A stretch of DNA of 30,407 bases from an uncultured bacterium (lineage in GTDB: Bacteria; CSSED10-310; CAZUFC01): contig CAZUFC010000103.1 in NCBI GenBank assembly GCA_964619725.1, positions 1 through 30,407 of the forward strand, given 5' to 3'. Position 1 is the stretch's first letter; each line of letters begins with the position of its first letter. The translations under genes and the position numbers were made by a program. Shown one piece after another: positions 22,657 through 30,407 of the stretch. The notes beneath the pieces were generated by a model, which did not search any database, had not been told where the DNA came from, and saw only the letters and a list, made by a program, of their open reading frames with translations.

Positions 22657-24426
22657 TTAATGAGTTATTTTCATCACTGTCACAATCTCAGGCGGTGAGT
22701 TAAGCTCTGGCATGGGAACAGGTTTGAAATCACCCGTTTGCATAGATAGTTTCAGAAAATTATGTAACTTTAAATTGACTACATTTTCCACAATTATTAC
22801 GGCAATTTCAAACTCATAACCGATATCCGCTGAAATACCATAATGAACGGTTAGTTTCCATTCATTATCTCTTGGATCTACTATAGCCTCTCCCTGCGGC
22901 CACCACATTCCGTGAAATCCTTTATTGCAATGTACAAGCACCCAAAGGTGTTCGCCAGACTTAAGTTTAGCAGAGCCTTTCACGATTCCGGTTCTTCCTA
23001 CACTTTCCCCTTCCATCGGTCGATAAATCGTTATTCCAGTAGACATTGGGATTACTCCTGCGCAATAAGTATTATGAATATCTTCAAATAAAAAATAATA
23101 TTTCTGAGCAGCTTCATCAAAATGATGATTTTCTATATCGCTGGATGCGGCAAGATATAGCTGTTGGTCGAGCTGAGCAATACTTTCATCTGATAATTGA
23201 AGTAAAATGTCATTATAAATTTCGCGAGCTTTGTTTATGTTTGTAGGATTCCCAACAGAAAAAAAATCGTTCGCCTCACAGACTTCTTTAAGCAATCCCT
23301 TCTCCTTGAGTTCTTCGCCGACTGAGGATTTTTTACGCTTCCTTACTATGTTTAAGCTGATAGGTTCACACATCCATACACAATTTGGTTCGTTACTTAT
23401 TATGTCACCAGGATTAATACCCTGATCCTTCGTAAATAATCCAACGTTTATAGAGTAAGCTCCCTCTTCCTGGATTATTATTTCTCCGTAAAAATTACCG
23501 TTGGAGTTTGTCCTGAGTTCTTGTTTTATAAGGAATACGCGCTTATTTTCATCCTTAACGATCGGCAAAAGTTGTAAATTATTTAACTCAAGGAAATTGC
23601 CGACATTTTTAAGGTAGCTGTCCTTATAAAGAAAAGATAAAAATCCGCTTATTTCAATTTTTTCTCTTTCATAACTTTTATACATTTCCCTGGGATTTTT
23701 CATTTTGATTTCAATTTTCAAATCGTTTAATTTTGCATCTGAAATCATCGGTTGCTGGAAAGTTTTACCAATATCAGGAGTTCTCATAAGAAATTTAATA
23801 ATATTTTCGGCGCTGACGCCAATATGAAAATGTTTAGTATTTGTTAGCATGCCAACGACTGACTTTTCCCTAAATATGGGACTCCCTGACATACCGGGGG
23901 TAATCGTACCGCCGCTGAAAACAATATCAGTTTTATACCTTACAAATCTGCAGTTCCTTTCAACATGCCATAATCCATCAATTGCACCTGGAACACCGAT
24001 AACAGTTATTTCATCATTATCCTTGAGAATGACATCCGAATCTATTTCAATTGTTGAAATTTTTCTAGCTTGAATATTCTTGTCTAAATTGAGTCGCAGT
24101 AAGGCAACATCAATGCCCGAATCGATACTTACAAGGCTGGCTGGAAAATTTTCTTCCACACCATAAAGGCGCACTCTGGGATTTTGATCCAAACAAATAT
24201 TCTCACTCGAAGATATCACATGACTTGCAGTTAAGATGTATAGGATGTTGTTTTTTTTCGAAATTATAAAACCAGTTCCCTCACCGCAATCACTTTCCAT
24301 TTGAACGACACAAGATTTCATATTTTCTGTTTCATTTCTGTCTATCAAATATTTTATCATCATTGCAGCAGGCAGAGAAATAATTGCTATTAATAAAATT
24401 GTTACAAACGATGATCGTTTCGTCAT
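22657..24426 (-). CDS. Membrane-anchored or secreted trypsin-like (S1) serine protease with long C-terminal extension
   Basis: GTGFII, ILTASHV (His), IDVALL (Asp), GMSGSPIF (Ser); N-terminal hydrophobic helix; AAGGAG RBS at 24434-24439. Confidence 0.88.
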   Translation of the reverse strand: MTKRSSFVTILLIAIISLPAAMMIKYLIDRNETENMKSCVVQMESDCGEGTGFIISKKNNILYILTASHVISSSENICLDQNPRVRLYGVEENFPASLVSIDSGIDVALLRLNLDKNIQARKISTIEIDSDVILKDNDEITVIGVPGAIDGLWHVERNCRFVRYKTDIVFSGGTITPGMSGSPIFREKSVVGMLTNTKHFHIGVSAENIIKFLMRTPDIGKTFQQPMISDAKLNDLKIEIKMKNPREMYKSYEREKIEISGFLSFLYKDSYLKNVGNFLELNNLQLLPIVKDENKRVFLIKQELRTNSNGNFYGEIIIQEEGAYSINVGLFTKDQGINPGDIISNEPNCVWMCEPISLNIVRKRKKSSVGEELKEKGLLKEVCEANDFFSVGNPTNINKAREIYNDILLQLSDESIAQLDQQLYLAASSDIENHHFDEAAQKYYFLFEDIHNTYCAGVIPMSTGITIYRPMEGESVGRTGIVKGSAKLKSGEHLWVLVHCNKGFHGMWWPQGEAIVDPRDNEWKLTVHYGISADIGYEFEIAVIIVENVVNLKLHNFLKLSMQTGDFKPVPMPELNSPPEIVTVMKITH

Positions 24427-24430
24427 TGCT

Positions 24431-25603
24431 TTACTCCTTTCGTCGTGGCAATATTACTTGTAATAATTTACCGGATGTCAAAATGCCAGAGATAGCAAAT
24501 CCGAAAACAATATAGAATTTTTTTAACTTATTATCATACCACAAAGTATCAAAAATCGATAACCTTAAATCTCGCTCGTGATCACCGCATAAGAGCTTAA
24601 TAACATCAGCTTTTCCACATATTGATATTGATAAGCTGATTTCAGAATTTTGTCCTGTTACAATATGTCCTTTTTCTATTCGAAAATTTTCCATTTTATC
24701 GATTTCTAAGAAATGATAGGGCTTGATTCCGATAGACGGCGCATCTGGATATATTGGATATTCCAATTGAAATTCTTCTAAAAAACTCGATACTATTTTA
24801 TAATGTTCGTCATAACTGCAGAATTTGATTGAGTCAACAGATATTCCCTGCCGAGGAAGAAGATTGATGAAATTAATGTTTTTTTCCGGTAAAGCTAGAG
24901 TCAGCGAATAGTCATTTCCCCATGATTCAGCACGAACACCTTCATCATTTTTCTGAGTTAATGAGAAATTATCGTTATCTTTATCAGAAATGCCATTCAA
25001 TAAAACATTGTTGTAGTGAACTTTGAATGAGTCATTAAGGAAGATTTTAGTCAATGATATCTCGTTTAAACTATTATGAATTTGAATTTTCAAATTTCTC
25101 TCTTTTCTAAATAAAGAAAGTTTAAATCGTGTATTTTTTACAGCCAATATTTTGTCGACCAATCCTGATTCAGTCATTTTGTGATGACTTTTTTTTGAAT
25201 TGATTTTTTGAAAATTTATAAAAGAAAACAACCTGTTTTCATTAGAACCATCAATAATAAGAGGGAAAGGATAAAACAAATTGTTTTTGTTGCATTTAAT
25301 TTGGGGAGCATTCTCTTTATTAATTTCTATTCCGTCGATTTTTGAAAAAAGTTGTAAAGATTCAAAATTGTTGATTCCAATTGAAGAAAAGGGAACTGAA
25401 TTCAGAATTGTACTCAGTTCATCATGAGGCATAGTTAGAGAGAATACAACATTTTGCAATGATATATTTGAATAAATTAGCGTTTTAACGGAAAACAGCA
25501 TAGTAAGGGGAAAGAGAAGCAAAAACAGAAAAGCTGTCCAATAATATTTAATAAACCATTTCTTTGATGAGAAAAAAATATCTTTAACAAAAACAAAAAT
25601 CAT
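24431..25603 (-). CDS. Hypothetical protein with N- and C-terminal TM anchors flanking a beta-rich soluble domain
   Basis: 390-aa ORF; TM-like YYWTAFLFLLLFPLTMLF and FYIVFGFAISGILTSG; ATGA overlap with the upstream stop; ends 4 bp before the protease start. Confidence 0.8.
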   Translation of the reverse strand: MIFVFVKDIFFSSKKWFIKYYWTAFLFLLLFPLTMLFSVKTLIYSNISLQNVVFSLTMPHDELSTILNSVPFSSIGINNFESLQLFSKIDGIEINKENAPQIKCNKNNLFYPFPLIIDGSNENRLFSFINFQKINSKKSHHKMTESGLVDKILAVKNTRFKLSLFRKERNLKIQIHNSLNEISLTKIFLNDSFKVHYNNVLLNGISDKDNDNFSLTQKNDEGVRAESWGNDYSLTLALPEKNINFINLLPRQGISVDSIKFCSYDEHYKIVSSFLEEFQLEYPIYPDAPSIGIKPYHFLEIDKMENFRIEKGHIVTGQNSEISLSISICGKADVIKLLCGDHERDLRLSIFDTLWYDNKLKKFYIVFGFAISGILTSGKLLQVILPRRKE

Positions 25604-26144
25604 TCAATCTTTTTCCTGTGATAAAAAGTCACTCTAAAATTAATTGGTATTTTCTTTTCCTTAGTCAATCCATCAATTGTCAAATCATATTCCCCCTCGA
25701 TTTCCTGGGATGAATCCCAAACAAGGCTAATGGGCGTTTCCGCATAAAGTAAAGGATAAATTCTATGATAAGAATCATTCTCCGAAGATTTTTTCTTTAT
25801 ACTACACTTTAAATCAACAACGTCCCTTATGGCTTTAAAAGCGAAATAATATTCTTTTACTTCTTTGGGAGGTTTTGAATGATAAAATATCGCCGGTGCG
25901 ACACGCTTTTCTCTGCCGATTTTATCTTTCTCCAACACGATTATAAAACCCAAATCAGTCAATTCCATACCGTGAATTTTCATTATCACTTCCTGGTAAG
26001 GCCATTGAAATTCATTATAGCAGTTCTTCCTCCATTTCAGTGATTCTTTTGATTTCATCCAGTAATAAAACTCATTGTCAATTTCTAAAGCAGTTATCTC
26101 GACTTGATTGGACTTTGTTAAATAGAATTTGATTTTCAAGTAAG
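25600..26144 (-). pseudogene. 3' part (179 codons) of a secreted-protein gene interrupted by the 26145-29789 element
   Basis: Joins in frame with 29791-30006 across the AGTAAG duplication: ...RLKRDTY|LKIKFYLTK..., restoring a 251-aa ORF. Confidence 0.9.
26139..26144 (+). repeat. Left target-site duplication AGTAAG
   Basis: The same hexamer lies at 29790-29795, immediately outside the right end. Confidence 0.9.
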
Positions 26145-26193
26145 TGCATAGGTTACACTAAAAAGGACAAAAGTCTGAGGAATTAACCCGACA
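26145..26193 (+). repeat. Left terminal inverted repeat
   Basis: tgcataggttacactaaaaaggacaaaagtctgaggaattaacccgaca; shares TGC, TAGGT, TAAAAAGGACAAAA and ACCCGACA with the reverse complement of 29740-29789. Confidence 0.88.
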
Positions 26194-26218
26194 TCTCCGC
26201 ACGAGTAGGAGATTGAAA

Positions 26219-27343
26219 ATGTCAGAGAAGAAAATAGGCCGTGAAGAGTTAGAGGAAGTGATATGCAAGATCAAGGAATTGGGCATGAGTTATCGTGAAG
26301 GTGCAGAGCATTTCGGGATCAACGTATGGAAGATTTATAATTACAATAAAAGGAAGAAAAAGTCTGAATCGGCGAAACTCGCACAGAATAGATCATCAGA
26401 GTCCGAATCGAAGTGTTCGGTAAAAAAGAAGTCAAAGCTTCCGTCAGAAGTTTCAGACCTGATATCGTCCTATAAGAAGGAGCATCCCGATCATGGATTT
26501 AAACGTATCCAGGATTGTTTAAAACAAAAGCATATGTTGGTAGTGACACGCAAGCAGATACGGAAGGTACTGAAGGAACGCGGAATTCTCAAGTCGACGG
26601 ATTCGAGTTTTGACCATACTCCGGCGAACGATAAAAAGGAACGACGCTTTGAAGCGCCTTATCCGCGTTCAATGTATCAGTTGGATATAACTTACGTATA
26701 TATTCAAGGACATCCTGTTCAGTATTTGCTGAACATAATCGATGATTACAGCCGTTTTTGCCTGGCGGCCGAACTTTGCCTCGATCAGAGCGCAGACGCT
26801 CTGTCTGCGGTATTGCATACAGCGATACTCAGATATGGAAAACCAAAGTGCGTTCTGACGGACCAGGGACCTTCATTTTACAGTTGGAGCATGAACAACA
26901 CGCGTTTTCAACAGTATTTGGACGATATGCGCATCGAACACATAGTAAGCGAACCTCATCACCCCCAGACATTGGGCAAGGTTGAGAGATTTCATCAGAC
27001 AGTAAAAAAAGAACTTTTCTCCAGGCGCAGATTCACAAGCTATGAAGATGCGGTAAAGGGAATCGCCGAATACGTTTCTTATTATAACTTCGAGCGTCCT
27101 CACCAGGGAATAGGAGGCGTTTGTCCTGCGGATCGATTTCACGGAATAGCGGGAGAGCGTCGCCGTGTTGAGGCTGAGCTTTTAAGCAAAATGATAGATT
27201 TATCCCGGGGTTATGTGATATGTAAATTCCGGGACCATACGATCAGCATAGCCGGTTCGTCGGAAGCGGTCAGAGTGTTTCTTGACGGCGATCTCATGGT
27301 TCCGGAAAGGAGAAAAAACGACAATGACGATAGACGAGAGTAA
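26219..27343 (+). CDS. IS481-like DDE transposase (HTH plus rve integrase core)
   Basis: HTH SYREGAEHFGINVWKIY; HPDHGFKRI; DDE motifs YQLDITY / LTDQG / GKVERFHQT; YNFERPHQGIGG..PADRF; AGGAG RBS 7 nt before ATG at 26219. Confidence 0.9.
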   Translation: MSEKKIGREELEEVICKIKELGMSYREGAEHFGINVWKIYNYNKRKKKSESAKLAQNRSSESESKCSVKKKSKLPSEVSDLISSYKKEHPDHGFKRIQDCLKQKHMLVVTRKQIRKVLKERGILKSTDSSFDHTPANDKKERRFEAPYPRSMYQLDITYVYIQGHPVQYLLNIIDDYSRFCLAAELCLDQSADALSAVLHTAILRYGKPKCVLTDQGPSFYSWSMNNTRFQQYLDDMRIEHIVSEPHHPQTLGKVERFHQTVKKELFSRRRFTSYEDAVKGIAEYVSYYNFERPHQGIGGVCPADRFHGIAGERRRVEAELLSKMIDLSRGYVICKFRDHTISIAGSSEAVRVFLDGDLMVPERRKNDNDDRRE

Positions 27344-28643
27344 GCAGTTGAATCTGGTTGAATTTTTAATTCGTCATTACGGAATGGAGTTCAACCGAGA
27401 AGGTAAACGCTGGTCGTCTTTTTCCCCGTTCAAAGAAGAGCGGAACCCCAGTTTCATTGTTCATTGCCGTAACGGACAATGGTTGTATAAAGATTTTTCG
27501 AGCGATTCGGGAGGCAGTATAATAGACTTCATAATGCATAAAGAAGATATTTCTTCGCCGTCTGAAGCTTTGGGATTCATCAATCGAATCAAGGGAACCG
27601 GATATAGGGGAATGACGATTAAACAAGCAGCTGAGAAATCTGAAACCGCCTATGATCTTGATTACGTTTACAGGAAAATCAAGTCGGAGGATGCCGGACC
27701 GGCTTATGAATGGCTTAAACGACGAGGCATAAGCGCTTCTTTGAATGCTGAATTGAAGAAGGCGGATATCGTAAGAGTGAATCGAAAAAATGGTGAGACC
27801 TACTGCTGCTTCGAGGTTCGTGATGAATCTGGAAAATTGCGATGCCTTGACAACCATCAGATCGGCGGGAGGAAAAAGTTCGTTCTCGGTGAAAAGTACT
27901 TGTTTACGCTTGATCATGAACGCCTGAACCGATCGGAGCGCGTGTTCGTTTCCGAAGGAATCGTGGATTGCCTGAGCATTCTCGATATAGAAGGGCATGA
28001 TACGGCTTCCGCAGCCTTGTTGGGGTTGACGACGAAATTTTTGGAACGCCGCATACCTGACGCCGTGGAAATAATATCCGCATTGGATGCCGACGATGCA
28101 GGAATATCGAAAACGCTGGATTTAAAGGAGTCATTTCCCGATAAGAGGGTTACGGCGTATGATATGGAGGATCATAAAGACCCGAATGAATTATTGACGG
28201 CCATACGATCCCAAAAACGAAAATCGTTGTCGCAGGATAAAAGAATGGAACTTTATGAAGATTATATCCGGAGCGAAAACAAAAGCGAAGTCGCCGGGCG
28301 TTGGGGAGTGGATCGTTCATATATGTATGAGATAATAAACGATTGTCGTCGATTTATTCAGGAAGGATATGTTCACAGACGCCCCGGCCGTAAACTCAAA
28401 AACGAACCGAAAAATATGAAAGAAGCGATGGATCGAATTCGCGAACTTGAGCGGGAAAAAAACAAAGCCGAAGCGGAAAAAGAATTATATTACGCCCGCA
28501 GCGAACTTGCATCCGTTCGTCTTAAATATGCTGAGCTTGAAGCTGCGGAGTTGAGAGGCGATACGATACGAAAAAGCCAAACGGACGAACCTCGACCGAA
28601 TAAAAAACGACACATAAAAAAAAAGAAAAAGAGGCAACGGTGA
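27324..28643 (+). CDS. DnaG-like protein: degenerate CHC2-type N-domain, Toprim domain, C-terminal HTH/coiled coil resembling IS3 OrfA
   Basis: SPFKEERNPSF...YKDFSSDSGGSIIDF (CHC2-like but lacking the Cys/His ligands); WLKRRGIS; Toprim VFVSEGIVDCLS, ALDADDAG, KDPNE; HTH KSEVAGRWGVDRSYMYEI; RRPGRK; coiled coil; AGGAG RBS before ATG at 27324. Confidence 0.85.
   Translation: MTIDESKQLNLVEFLIRHYGMEFNREGKRWSSFSPFKEERNPSFIVHCRNGQWLYKDFSSDSGGSIIDFIMHKEDISSPSEALGFINRIKGTGYRGMTIKQAAEKSETAYDLDYVYRKIKSEDAGPAYEWLKRRGISASLNAELKKADIVRVNRKNGETYCCFEVRDESGKLRCLDNHQIGGRKKFVLGEKYLFTLDHERLNRSERVFVSEGIVDCLSILDIEGHDTASAALLGLTTKFLERRIPDAVEIISALDADDAGISKTLDLKESFPDKRVTAYDMEDHKDPNELLTAIRSQKRKSLSQDKRMELYEDYIRSENKSEVAGRWGVDRSYMYEIINDCRRFIQEGYVHRRPGRKLKNEPKNMKEAMDRIRELEREKNKAEAEKELYYARSELASVRLKYAELEAAELRGDTIRKSQTDEPRPNKKRHIKKKKKRQR
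28619..28625 (+). promoter_or_regulatory. Putative -1 programmed ribosomal frameshift heptamer A_AAA_AAG
   Basis: In phase with ORF2 (ATA AAA AAA AAG). The -1 frame is open from 28604 (after TAA at 28601-28603) straight into ORF3. Confidence 0.6.
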
Positions 28644-29749
28644 ACATGATCAAAAAAATTGCTGAAAAGTGTTCCTCTTTGAACATGAAAACAATAATCG
28701 ATCAAACCGATCATTCCCGCAGCAGGATTTATGAATGGATGAAAGGCAATACGGAAAGGAAGTCCAGAAAACGTAAGTCATTGGATTCAGATGTCGTATC
28801 AAATGCAGTGACAGTCGTTGTCCAATATCCCCATTTCGGAGGTCTGAAGGGACAATTGTACATGCTCTATTCCAAAATGGGACTGTTATCCAGGAATAAT
28901 TATCAACGCATTAAGAAGCTCGTTCGCCGAATGATCGCGTGGGAAGTTTACGATCGCCGCCTGATTCAAAAGCAAATCTCATCATACGAGCATCAACGAC
29001 CTTCATCTACGGGTGAGATTTGGGCTGAAGATTTCACTCAAATCGTAGCGGAAGGCAGAACTTTTTATATAGCCGTCGTAATCGATACGGCAAGTATGAT
29101 GTATCTTGGATGGGCCGTGATGTTTCGTCCGTGCGACGGTCTTGTAGCAGCGCCTGTTTTGCAGGCGCTTGAATCTTCCGACGGTAAACCGCCGATTGAG
29201 TTTCTTATCTCAGACAACGGAACGCAATATAAAAGCGAAAAGCACGAAAAATTGCTGGATGAAGCGAAAATCGTTCATAAATGCATACCGTCTTGCGTTC
29301 CCCAGTACAACGGTTCAGTGGAATGCGGGATGAGAGAATTGAAACAGGTGTTTTACGAAAATTGGCGAAATGAACGATTGCCGGAAAACAAAAAAGATAA
29401 GAAAGAAGCGACTAAAGAAAAAAATCTTTTGAAACGAGTTAGGATAACGCTTCAGCAAACTATAGAGGATTTAAATTGCAAAATACCTAGACCGGTTCTG
29501 AACGGAGTCGCTCCGGCAGACGTCCATGATGGAACCGCCAGGGACAAAAGAAAGGAGATTCTTGCCTACAAACAACGAGAACAAAACAGCAGCCCGAGGA
29601 AACCTCTCGATGTTCCCTTGTGGAAAGCCGTAAAAAATACGCTGGTGGGTATTGAAATGGATAATCGAAATTTATTAATCACACACCGCCTGCTGCATAA
29701 AAAACCGCTACGGCGGGTGGCGAAAATGATGCGGGAAGGTGTCGGGTAA
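28640..29749 (+). CDS. Second DDE integrase-core protein (IS3 OrfB-like)
   Basis: YPHFGG; DDE motifs IWAEDFT / LISDNGTQY / NGSVECGM; PRPVLNGVAP; lies in the -1 frame relative to ORF2; stop codon is inside the right TIR. Confidence 0.85.
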   Translation: MNMIKKIAEKCSSLNMKTIIDQTDHSRSRIYEWMKGNTERKSRKRKSLDSDVVSNAVTVVVQYPHFGGLKGQLYMLYSKMGLLSRNNYQRIKKLVRRMIAWEVYDRRLIQKQISSYEHQRPSSTGEIWAEDFTQIVAEGRTFYIAVVIDTASMMYLGWAVMFRPCDGLVAAPVLQALESSDGKPPIEFLISDNGTQYKSEKHEKLLDEAKIVHKCIPSCVPQYNGSVECGMRELKQVFYENWRNERLPENKKDKKEATKEKNLLKRVRITLQQTIEDLNCKIPRPVLNGVAPADVHDGTARDKRKEILAYKQREQNSSPRKPLDVPLWKAVKNTLVGIEMDNRNLLITHRLLHKKPLRRVAKMMREGVG

Positions 29750-29789
29750 TTTCTATGATTTTTTGTCCTTTTTATCTTGACCTAGCGCA
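29740..29789 (-). repeat. Right terminal inverted repeat
   Basis: Reverse complement is tgcgctaggtcaagataaaaaggacaaaaaatcatagaaattacccgaca. Confidence 0.88.
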
Positions 29790-30006
29790 AGTAAGTATCT
29801 CTTTTTAGTCTCGCCTTGTCGGTGTAATGGACTTGGAACGCCAATAATTCAATATTTTGTGCCGAAATCGGCTTACTTTTTATACCCTCATACCTGTTTC
29901 CCCTGTCTTTATAATCCAAGTCAGCGCCGGCGCAAACTTCGGTTGACCACCAAGCAGTGAAAAAAAACAAAACGATTATGTCAGTTAACAGTTTCGGTTT
30001 TTTCAT
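29790..30006 (-). pseudogene. 5' part (72 codons, signal peptide) of the interrupted gene; includes the right TSD at 29790-29795
   Basis: MKKPKLLTDIIVLFFFTAWWSTEVCA signal-like start; the ORF now stops at a TAG inside the right TIR; frame continues at 26139 once the element is removed. Confidence 0.9.
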
Positions 30007-30407
30007 AGCAACTAATCCTTATTTCCCAATATTTCTGAAAATGCAGCACGCAGGAAAAATGTAAAAAATTAAATTATTTTTTAAAAAGGAATTGTACTTT
30101 TTTTTCCAATTCGATTGCATAATGAAAACCATAATTTCAATTTTCCGATTATTCGGGCAAATTGATCGTTGAGAAGTTCACTTTTCATGATTTCTTATTC
30201 CAGAATCAAAAAAATTTCGGAAACATAAAGAATAAGAAGGAACCGAATCGTTTGATTTTCCATAAGAGTAGACCCTCCTTACATAAGAACATTTTAGTAA
30301 GTATCAGAAAAAGGCGAAAATGTCAACCGACTGACGAACGGATTGAAGAAATTTTGTGTCTTTCCGGCAAGCGTGCTTAACAATCCCTGCCCGCCGTGGC
30401 TATCATT

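Follow-up and report, generated by a model that had tools for sequence, protein, structure and literature searches.

The window, by which we mean the whole 30,407-nt stretch analysed (contig CAZUFC010000103.1 from an uncultured bacterium), contains a mobile element of 3645 bp on the plus strand (26145..29789). The element has 5'-TG...CA-3' termini and terminal inverted repeats (left, 26145..26175, TGCATAGGTTACACTAAAAAGGACAAAAG...; right, 29759..29789, ...TTTTTGTCCTTTTTATCTTGACCTAGCGCA; both plus strand) and is flanked by a 6-bp direct repeat, AGTAAG, at 26139-26144 and 29790-29795. Ambiguity in the terminal bases also allows a 9-bp reading of the repeat (CAAGTAAGT; 26137-26145 and 29788-29796). 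Two pieces of a minus-strand ORF, at 29782..30006 and 25600..26139, join in frame across the repeat (...DTYL/KIKFY). The termini TGCATAGG... and ...CTAGNGCA recur in most of the 28 loci listed, and the right end shows, in its inner part, a difference from the left end that is conserved across loci. Elsewhere the element is ~3.6-3.7 kb long and its flanks share nYTArn, which we take to recall the 6-bp IS481 target NCTAGN; the two sides are often not identical, and the duplication length is known from this window alone. One full copy is present in the host genome and one in each of the three longer assemblies searched. Among 40 genomes related to the host, 27 gave DnaG-like matches, all weak, and none had a copy of the element. 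Contigs from four DNA runs of a single study, one of them perhaps the source, cover the element with an unchanged A run (see below) and contain no joint across an empty site; among public runs, no RNA run with the element was listed.

Three genes lie within these ends. ORF1 (26213..27343, plus strand, 376 aa) encodes an IS481-like DDE transposase in a single unshifted frame, with Pfam matches to rve/rve_3 and an invariant triad (D158, D217, E258). The match to the NCBIfam IS481 model NF033577 covers profile positions 5-284 of 284 (E 3e-59) and scores 201.1 bits, below the cut-off of 224. Of the 73 loci with room for one, 71 have an ORF1 homologue immediately before ORF2.

ORF2 (27324..28643, plus strand, with a further start at 27282) yields a 439-aa product from ATG 27324 when decoded without a shift. 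It has a zinc-ribbon-like domain and then, reaching to about residue 300, a DnaG-type catalytic domain that includes Toprim; three short helices and a long one follow before the Lys/Arg tail. Pfam matches were to Zn_ribbon_DnaG and Toprim_2, and a profile search likewise matched DnaG, the TIGR01391 score being 72 bits against a cut-off of 284. In the structure model (pLDDT 83) the helices span residues 304-316, 320-327 and 331-350, followed by the long helix at 365-410. A Foldseek search with this model returned 2au3 (E 2e-12) and also 1nui, 1eqn, 3b39, 8dvf and others, T7 gp4, T4 gp61, Twinkle and the E. coli DnaG core all being matched at E 1e-6 or lower. All of 31 sequences share the Toprim acidic residues E211, D215, D255, D257 and D286. 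At the positions that we take, from mapping by eye, to be those of the CHC2 zinc ligands, the window has S34, K37, D57 and S60; of these, S34 and D57 do not vary within the ORF2 family. Residues 1-300 are thus predicted, from the modelled fold and the intact Toprim residues, to be a DnaG-type primase. The remainder of the protein had been likened to IS3 OrfA in an earlier, sequence-only reading of the same DNA. In OrfA of IS3 elements a leucine-zipper-like helix comes after a helix-turn-helix, and the likeness gains modest support from the three short helices and one long helix of the model and from the IS3 model NF033516, which spans natural fusions of the two proteins (see below). However, the tail on its own matches no NCBIfam model and no IS3 OrfA Pfam family. 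Searches of the ESM Atlas returned only unnamed Toprim/zinc-ribbon clusters, and no ORF2 match was found in the plasmid collection. Annotation pipelines currently label the genes "DNA primase", "CHC2 zinc finger protein" or "hypothetical", and so recognise neither the mobile element nor the fusion protein.

The region that would form the second part of a fusion (28625..29749, plus strand) comprises 374 codons (EKEATVNMIK...) and a stop, and encodes an IS3-OrfB-like DDE domain. ORF3 matches Pfam rve, and its triad (D129, D190, E226) is invariant in 67 of 67 sequences. Scored alone against the NCBIfam IS3 model NF033516 it reaches 76.9 bits, below the cut-off of 160.

Close to the end of ORF2 lies an A9G run (28616..28625, plus strand), with the A's at 28616-28624 and the G at 28625. 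The ORF2-frame codons here are ...CAC ATA AAA AAA AAG AAA AAG AGG CAA CGG TGA, which place two heptamers in phase, A_AAA_AAA at 28616-28622 and A_AAA_AAG at 28619-28625, and the C-terminal translation of ORF2 is NKKRHIKKKKKRQR followed by the stop. In the -1 frame a TAA at 28601-28603 precedes an open stretch that begins at 28604, reads KTTHKKKEKEATVNMIKKIAEKC... and continues into ORF3, ending at 29749. The run, the in-frame A_AAA_AAG and the absence of a -1 frame stop from 28604 had all been pointed out in the sequence-only reading, and all were confirmed on the sequence. Judged from the window alone, however, the run is not beyond chance, since the single A9G compares with 0.57 expected, at least one was present in 43 of 100 shuffles and the host genome contains 380 runs of exactly 9 A or T. 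A poly-Lys tail also yields in-phase heptamers by itself, without selection.

Its conservation across homologous elements, on the other hand, is beyond chance. Homologous loci were gathered by alignment-based scans, and 98 held both the ORF2 end and the ORF3 start; codon and start counts were made on 90 non-redundant loci, which range from 38 to 66% G+C and come from many phyla. A search for related loci with the single protein yielded one distant DnaG-like locus, L002, which was of no use. A family member lies, at high coverage, on contig L026 of Desulfobulbus alkaliphilus DSM 24258. At the corresponding position every one of the 98 loci carries 8 or more A's in a row. The run is A9G in the same phase in 77 of them, A8C in six, A10C in six, A10G in one and A11G in one, with A8G starting at codon position 1 in four loci (including L009) and at codon position 3 in three. 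Relative to ORF2, ORF3 lies in -1 in 95 of the 98, each with an in-phase A_AAA_AAA or A_AAA_AAG of the X_XXY_YYZ type; the run and the phase noticed in the window are conserved among its homologues. The loci with ORF3 in +1 (L019, L039 and L048) are the three whose A8G run starts at codon position 3. In a distant subfamily (28-32% identical) the same place holds A9, A10 or A11, and ORF3 is in +1 in two of three loci (L123, L127); L123 and L124, two contigs of one assembly, differ in having A10 and A11, respectively. Ribosomal slippage by -1 could not serve the +1 loci (L019, L039, L048, L123, L127).

Codon usage speaks for selection on the nucleotides themselves. In 85 of 90 loci the codon in which the run begins has A as its third base (ATA 44, GTA 31, TTA 6, GCA 2, CTA 2); in the rest of the same genes ATA accounts for 18% of Ile codons, GTA for 14% of Val codons and AAA for 40% of Lys codons. 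Rare synonymous codons keep the run intact. Moreover, the -1 frame peptide E-K-x-E-T starts directly after the run: among the 77 loci in which this peptide begins with E, the residues that follow are K in 76, E in 67 and T in 62. The conserved protein frame is thus the -1 frame, from the first codon past the run. The unshifted upstream product ends 5-9 codons past the site in 84 of 87 loci of the -1 type.

The sequence-only reading had predicted a transframe protein of about 800 aa and advised a search for natural in-frame fusions. The calculated length is 808 aa (434 + 374), and five database proteins of 686-816 aa (P0009, P0079, P0121, P0122 and P0125) are such fusions with the predicted junction, the full-length ones being 792-816 aa. 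The junction reads [IV]KKKEKEE or IKKNEKHE in the sequences of P0009, P0079, P0121 and P0122, while P0125 (816 aa) was counted by its length and match range only. The fused proteins could themselves be products of homopolymer sequencing errors. NF033516 aligns as one stretch in four fusions (E 6e-19 to 3e-26), running from residue 316-343, inside the ORF2 tail, to residue 683-732 and from profile position 3-27 to 329-368 of 369, with scores of 68-93 bits, below the cut-off of 160. Because the model spans the ORF2 tail through ORF3, the shift would sit where IS3 elements have theirs. The fusion protein of the window was itself judged through these natural fusions.

Taken together, the conservation of site, frame and junction, the natural fusions and the domain identities support the primase-transposase transframe fusion that had been proposed, and we consider it highly probable that A9G at 28616-28625 is the programmed recoding site of an IS3-type orfA/orfB junction, joining primase-like ORF2 to the ORF3 transposase. 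An arrangement with no functional shift has also to be weighed, in which the A run only encodes a basic tail and ORF3 is made alone, by coupling at GTGA (28640-28643) or from ATG 28646 behind AAGAGG. The possible start region (28629..28648, plus strand) contains the Shine-Dalgarno-like AAGAGG at 28629-28634, GTG 28640, which overlaps the ORF2 stop TGA at 28641-28643, and ATG 28646. A start codon lies within 27 nt after the run in 54 of 90 loci (ATG in 22 of these), so ORF3 could be translated separately here. Translational coupling, raised in the sequence-only reading as a second way of making ORF3, is thus possible in the window but is not conserved. No ATG, GTG or TTG is found within 33 nt of the run in 30 of 90 loci, or within 60 nt in 16 of 90, and the position of the ATG in some loci is taken by CTG, TTA, AAG or another codon in others. 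The conserved -1 frame E-K-x-E-T upstream of the starts, and the rare ATA and GTA codons that keep the run long, likewise argue against independent expression, which we regard as an unlikely explanation.

Replication slippage at the DNA level might instead alternate split (A9) and fused (A10) copies, of which only the fused alleles would be active. The five fused proteins fit an A10 allele, and the three A8G loci with ORF3 in +1, as well as the A10 and A11 of L123 and L124 within one assembly, fit a run of changing length. However, the DNA is in frame in none of the 98 loci, and the same-length split form dominates across many phyla, as expected of read-through at the RNA or protein level. The length variants may be homopolymer sequencing errors, and the run of the window was unchanged in a second run of the same study; such a switch seems to us quite improbable. 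As for coincidence, with an A run arising by chance in a Lys-rich tail and a transposase gene next to it that has no connection with it, the expected count of A9G and the many 9-nt runs in the host would allow it, but it is contradicted by the comparisons of frame, run, codons, starts, fusion alignments and ORF1 neighbours and is barely credible.

We infer the occurrence, route and frequency of the shift, as well as the role of the primase module, from the comparisons above. In the recoding reading, standard decoding would stop six codons past the site and give the 439-aa protein made up of the DnaG-type primase module, putative helix-turn-helix, long helix and basic tail. In a fraction of events reading would move to -1 within the run, giving the 808-aa fusion to the ORF3 DDE transposase with the junction ...HIKKK/EKEATVNMIK.... 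The transcript could gain one A through slippage of RNA polymerase, or the ribosome could slip by -1 on A_AAA_AAA or A_AAA_AAG, and the transcript and ribosomal routes would lead to the same 808-aa protein. A downstream stimulatory structure, which the sequence-only reading had suggested looking for, was not found as a conserved feature: RNAalifold gave 0 pairs in 33 aligned sequences, and 80-nt downstream folds had a mean z of -0.02 over 88 sequences, with no excess stability. The window itself has a local hairpin (28628..28680, plus strand, -10.4 kcal/mol, z -1.0 and -0.3) that begins 2 nt past the heptamer but is weak and not conserved, and the fold of the 201-nt context has a z of 0.01. 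The host encodes both tRNA-Lys(CUU) and tRNA-Lys(UUU). The presence of tRNA-Lys(CUU), with the lack of a conserved downstream structure, inclines us towards RNA polymerase slippage over ribosomal -1 frameshifting.

The length of the run bears on the same question. The frameshift motif of the IS3 family is quoted as A_AAA_AAG (PMC3711429), and the slippage signal of IS elements is given as runs of 9 A's, with 8-A variants (PMC1088944). A threshold of about 8-9 or more A's for a slippage run, kept among homologues, is taken from PMC3711429 and PMC1088944, and here all 98 loci have at least 8 A's and 77 have 9. The selected run, at 8-11 A's, is longer than a heptamer needs, which makes RNA polymerase slippage at least as likely as a ribosomal -1 shift. 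In IS1447, an IS3 member with nine A's, transcription was found by experiment to slip about 16% in each direction (PMC6211511). On balance, transcript slippage is slightly favoured as the main route and ribosomal slippage is a lesser though appreciable prospect, with the remaining weight on both contributing.

A literature search with few subscription journals and no ISfinder within its reach looked for DDE elements (IS3-like, IS481-like or other) that carry a primase or Toprim protein, and found none described; the GeneTack and Sharma cluster tables might list the family. The 3.6-kb element is apparently of a kind not described before. The primase module might, as a guess, prime DNA synthesis for the copy-out-paste-in pathway of IS3-type elements. 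Extending this, we tentatively suggest, as a rather speculative possibility, a DDE insertion sequence family that brings its own primase: recoding would tether a DnaG-type primase to an IS3-type transposase, the element would prime copy-out synthesis without the host primosome, and the IS481-like transposase would handle the other, differently built end. If true, a built-in priming function together with a two-transposase, asymmetric-end design would be a first among bacterial DDE elements. Taken by itself, the recoding signal is a textbook one, and its use here is as a clean natural data set: the 90 non-redundant homologues, at 38-66% G+C, all have 8-11 A's. What is unusual is what the signal would join, a DnaG-type primase with intact Toprim and a DDE transposase, in a three-gene element with a second catalytic transposase and two differently built ends. 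Regarding the priming of the replication step in copy-out-paste-in transposition, the only literature link found was the host-side PrimPol IEE (10.1101/2023.06.07.543989). Were an element to encode a primase of its own and tether it, the priming question would become testable with a defined set of proteins.

Programmed -1 ribosomal frameshifting between orfA and orfB is exemplified in the IS3 family by IS911, IS3 and IS150. IS3 elements have TG...CA ends, are about 1.2-1.6 kb long, carry one transposase gene pair and generate a 3-5 bp duplication. The element resembles this family in its two frames overlapping in 0/-1 phase with an in-phase A_AAA_AAG, in an upstream product that ends a few codons on, in a putative helix-turn-helix and a long helix upstream of a DDE domain, in its TG...CA termini and in the IS3 model spanning the fusion junctions. 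It differs in having a run of 8-11 A's instead of a bare heptamer, no conserved downstream structure, and about 300 aa of DnaG-type primase module at the N-terminus of its OrfA. It also differs in its 3645-bp length, three genes, second, IS481-like transposase and 6- or 9-bp duplication, and in scores below the NCBI IS3 cut-off. ORF1 is like the IS481 family in its full-profile match, single unshifted frame and intact DDE triad. However, its 201 bits fall below the cut-off of 224, and IS481 members have a single gene and a length of about 1 kb, whereas ORF1 is one of three genes. ORF2 shares the fold of the zinc-ribbon and catalytic domains, and the Toprim acidic residues, with the DnaG, T7 gp4 and T4 gp61 primases. 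Unlike them, it has S34, D57 and S60 at three of the four presumed zinc-ligand positions and lacks a helicase or helicase-binding domain.

The nine-A slippage elements (PMC1088944; IS1447, PMC6211511) offer a close parallel, with A9 at the orfA/orfB junction, 8-A and longer variants, and no need of a stimulatory structure. As polymerase slippage could allow, the required direction varies in the distant subfamily. IS1447 of Clostridium thermocellum has a stem-loop before the run (PMC6211511) and needs +1, whereas 95 of the 98 loci here need -1 and slippage in them is put forward from sequence comparison. A precedent for priming linked to IS3-type transposition is IEE, the insertion sequence excision enhancer, a PrimPol-type protein that acts with the transposases of copy-out-paste-in elements (10.1101/2023.06.07.543989). 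IEE, whose PrimPol is of the archaeo-eukaryotic type and comes with a helicase domain, is encoded outside the IS and promotes excision. By contrast, the predicted primase described here is of the DnaG type, is encoded inside the element and would be joined to its transposase.

The primase-like gene ORF2 (27282 or 27324 to 28643) ends in the codons CAC ATA AAA AAA AAG AAA AAG AGG CAA CGG TGA, which contain a run of nine A's (28616-28624) followed by a G at 28625. The heptamer A_AAA_AAG, on which the sequence-only reading had placed a -1 frameshift, does lie in the ORF2 phase at 28619-28625, and a second in-phase heptamer, A_AAA_AAA, lies at 28616-28622. The -1 frame is open as had been claimed, with a TAA at 28601-28603 and none after it through the run (KKKEKEATVNMIKKIAEKC), and leads into ORF3, the IS3-OrfB-like DDE transposase gene, which ends at 29749. 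Pfam assigns Zn_ribbon_DnaG and Toprim_2 to ORF2, and rve to ORF3. The motif in the window alone proves nothing, because 0.57 A9G are expected by chance, at least one is present in 43 of 100 shuffles, the host genome has 380 A or T runs that are exactly nine long, and in-phase heptamers arise from any Lys-rich tail.

Of the homologous loci compared, ninety-eight, the window included, hold both the end of ORF2 and the start of ORF3. All have at least 8 A's at the homologous position, and 95 have ORF3 in the -1 frame against three with +1, so that both run and phase proved to be conserved. A9G in the phase of the window accounts for 77 loci, A8C and A10C for 6 each, A8G with the run from codon position 1 for 4 (including L009), A8G with the run from codon position 3 for the three +1 loci, and A10G and A11G for one each. 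In 90 non-redundant loci (G+C 38 to 66%), 85 open the run with a codon ending in A (ATA 44, GTA 31, TTA 6, GCA 2, CTA 2); elsewhere in these genes the share of ATA among Ile codons is 18%, that of GTA among Val codons 14% and that of AAA among Lys codons 40%. The run is thus maintained at the nucleotide level, and is longer than the heptamer needs. Directly after it the -1 frame encodes E-K-x-E-T: of the 77 loci in which this peptide starts with E, 76 have K next, 67 the second E and 62 the T. In 84 of 87 -1 loci, the 0 frame ends 5-9 codons past the run. A distant subfamily (28-32% identity to ORF2) has A9, A10 or A11 in the corresponding place, the ORF3-like frame being -1 in L124 and +1 in L123 and L127. 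L123 and L124 are near-identical members on two contigs of one Gammaproteobacteria assembly, in which runs of A10 (L123, 3062-3071) and A11 (L124, 1296-1306) put the transposase frame at +1 and -1, respectively.

Natural in-frame fusions of ORF2 and ORF3 were found in four database proteins whose sequences were examined: P0009 (686 aa, cut by its contig), P0079 (792 aa), P0121 (802 aa) and P0122 (805 aa). Their junctions (...QIKKKEKEETL..., ...HVKKKEKEEIV..., ...QIKKNEKHETV...) are as the shift predicts, and P0125 (816 aa) fits a fusion by length and match range. None of the 98 loci is fused in frame at the DNA level, where the fused form is therefore rare; the fused proteins may come from an allele with A10 or from a sequencing error in the homopolymer. 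In four of the fusions the NCBIfam IS3 model aligns unbroken from residues 316-343 to 683-732 (profile positions 3-27 to 329-368 of 369), albeit with scores of 68-93 bits, below the cut-off of 160. The ORF2 tail and ORF3 are therefore colinear with an entire IS3 OrfAB, and this alignment lends modest support to the run lying at the OrfA/OrfB boundary.

The predicted structure of ORF2 (pLDDT 83) matches primases to about residue 300, with Aquifex DnaG (2au3) at E 2e-12 and T7 gp4, T4 gp61, Twinkle and the E. coli DnaG core at E ≤1e-6; a sequence profile of the family also recovers DnaG. All 31 sequences compared keep the Toprim acidic residues E211, D215, D255, D257 and D286, and S34, K37, D57 and S60 occupy what are presumably the zinc-ligand positions. 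In the tail, three short helices (304-350) are followed by one long helix (365-410) and a Lys/Arg tail, an order which we take to be the layout of IS3 OrfA. The proposed OrfA-like character of this tail thus stands on helix layout and on the IS3 alignment over the fusions, but the tail of the window on its own has zero matches to NCBIfam models and the fusion scores are below cut-off.

It had also been suggested, as an alternative, that ORF3 could be made by translational coupling. The window does have potential starts (AAGAGG-N5-GTG, plus an ATG), and a start codon lies within 27 nt of the run in 54 of 90 loci (ATG in 22), but 30 have none within 33 nt and 16 none within 60 nt. Separate initiation is therefore no feature of the family. 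For the frameshift, either RNA polymerase would add one A in the run, or the ribosome would slip -1 on either heptamer; both routes would yield the same protein of 434 + 374 = 808 aa, in agreement with the ~800 aa anticipated. The stimulatory structure sought downstream of the site was not borne out, as none is conserved and the hairpin in the window is weak, which favours slippage during transcription. In E. coli, tRNA-Lys(CUU) makes A_AAA_AAG less effective for ribosomal slippage, and the presence of this tRNA in the host genome points the same way. The 8-11 A's kept by selection also lean towards transcript slippage, being within the length range given for RNA polymerase slippage in PMC3711429 and PMC1088944, the latter of which describes 27 IS elements with runs of nine A's and variants of eight. 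So does the precedent of IS1447, a nine-A IS3 member for which PMC6211511 reports experimental transcriptional slippage of ~16% in each direction. The +1 arrangements (3/98 loci; two of three distant ones) could be served by polymerase slippage and not by -1 ribosomal slippage, or these loci may be dead copies or sequencing errors. We lean towards transcription over ribosomal slippage; a search of public sequencing runs gave no RNA run with the element. The observation made from the window is thus confirmed, and its interpretation as a frameshift fusion is supported.

A word-indexed search found 147 ORF2 relatives at E ≤0.001, most of 435-460 aa on contigs of ~3.5-4.5 kb, and an exhaustive search with 50% clustering gave 35 representatives at 1e-30 or better. 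Alignment-based scans gave 26 genome and 80 metagenome loci, in assemblies labelled Acidobacteriota, Gemmatimonadota, Desulfobacterales, Planctomycetota, Fibrobacterota, Caldithrix and others. The source names for the protein are "DNA primase", "transposase-like protein" and "CHC2 zinc finger domain-containing protein". Immediately after ORF2, an ORF3 homologue is present in 68/68 loci. ORF1, the IS481-like transposase gene (26213-27343; 201 bits, cut-off 224), has a homologue immediately before ORF2 in 71 of 73 loci with room for one. The catalytic triads of ORF1 (D158, D217, E258) and ORF3 (D129, D190, E226) are each intact in 67/67. The two loci with room but no ORF1 homologue, L024 and L025, have the primase module only. 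In L025 (4501-5412, Desulfosarcina cetonica JCM 12296) this is a stand-alone 303-aa protein without the OrfA-like tail or a transposase, L024 being similar, and its gene is flanked by genes for an FtsK/HerA/TrwB-like ATPase and a large serine recombinase. This neighbourhood suggests that the primase module was taken from a different mobile element. Positions 456-774 of P0132, a 797-aa database protein, match ORF2 residues 2-308, which implies a fusion upstream of the primase module, possibly to ORF1. The host genome also contains a decayed second relative (G000 contig C341, 79-1483) that lacks an upstream primase module: its OrfA-like piece (106 aa) ends ...KNKQIKKNKKKMC and its ORF3-like frame is broken.

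The three genes are all on one strand, enclosed by inverted repeats (26149-26172 and 29761-29784) which, read with their flanks, delimit a mobile element at 26145-29789 (5'-TGCATAGG...CCTAGCGCA-3'). AGTAAG flanks it on both sides, also readable as 9 bp (CAAGTAAGT) since the outermost bases are ambiguous. Minus-strand ORF pieces at 29782..30006 and 25600..26139 join in frame over one repeat copy, and the element therefore interrupted a gene. The predicted product of that gene (~250 aa) has a signal-peptide-like start (MKKPKLLTDIIVLFFFTAWW...), and the gene heads a series of minus-strand ORFs (24431-25603 and 22657-24426). The termini are kept across loci, the left end as TGCATAGGGTAGGATAAATCGGACAAAA and the right (reverse complement) as TGCACTAGCGCAAGAAAAAACGGACAAAAAA, and differ from each other in a conserved manner. 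Both (26145-26175, 29759-29789) share TGCA and (A/T)CGGACAAAA, the conserved difference being TAGGGTAGGATAAAT at the left and CTAGCGCAAGAAAAAA at the right; with two different transposases encoded, a separate protein may bind each end. A single full copy of the element is present in the host genome. The final 60 bases of the window (30348-30407) are a repeat: in run X1 the summed contig depth rises there from ~6 to 113, and several contigs that continue differently converge.

The site itself is typical of IS3-type recoding. The element, however, is not an ordinary IS3: it scores below the curated IS3 cut-off, is 3.6 kb long with three genes, carries a second, IS481-like transposase, has a duplication of 6 or 9 bp, and its OrfA is lengthened by a DnaG-type primase. 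No description of such an element was found in the literature on primase or Toprim proteins in IS3-like, IS481-like and other DDE elements, or in the plasmid collection. Any role of the primase in the present element is inferred. The nearest functional precedent is IEE, a PrimPol that works with the transposases of copy-out-paste-in elements.
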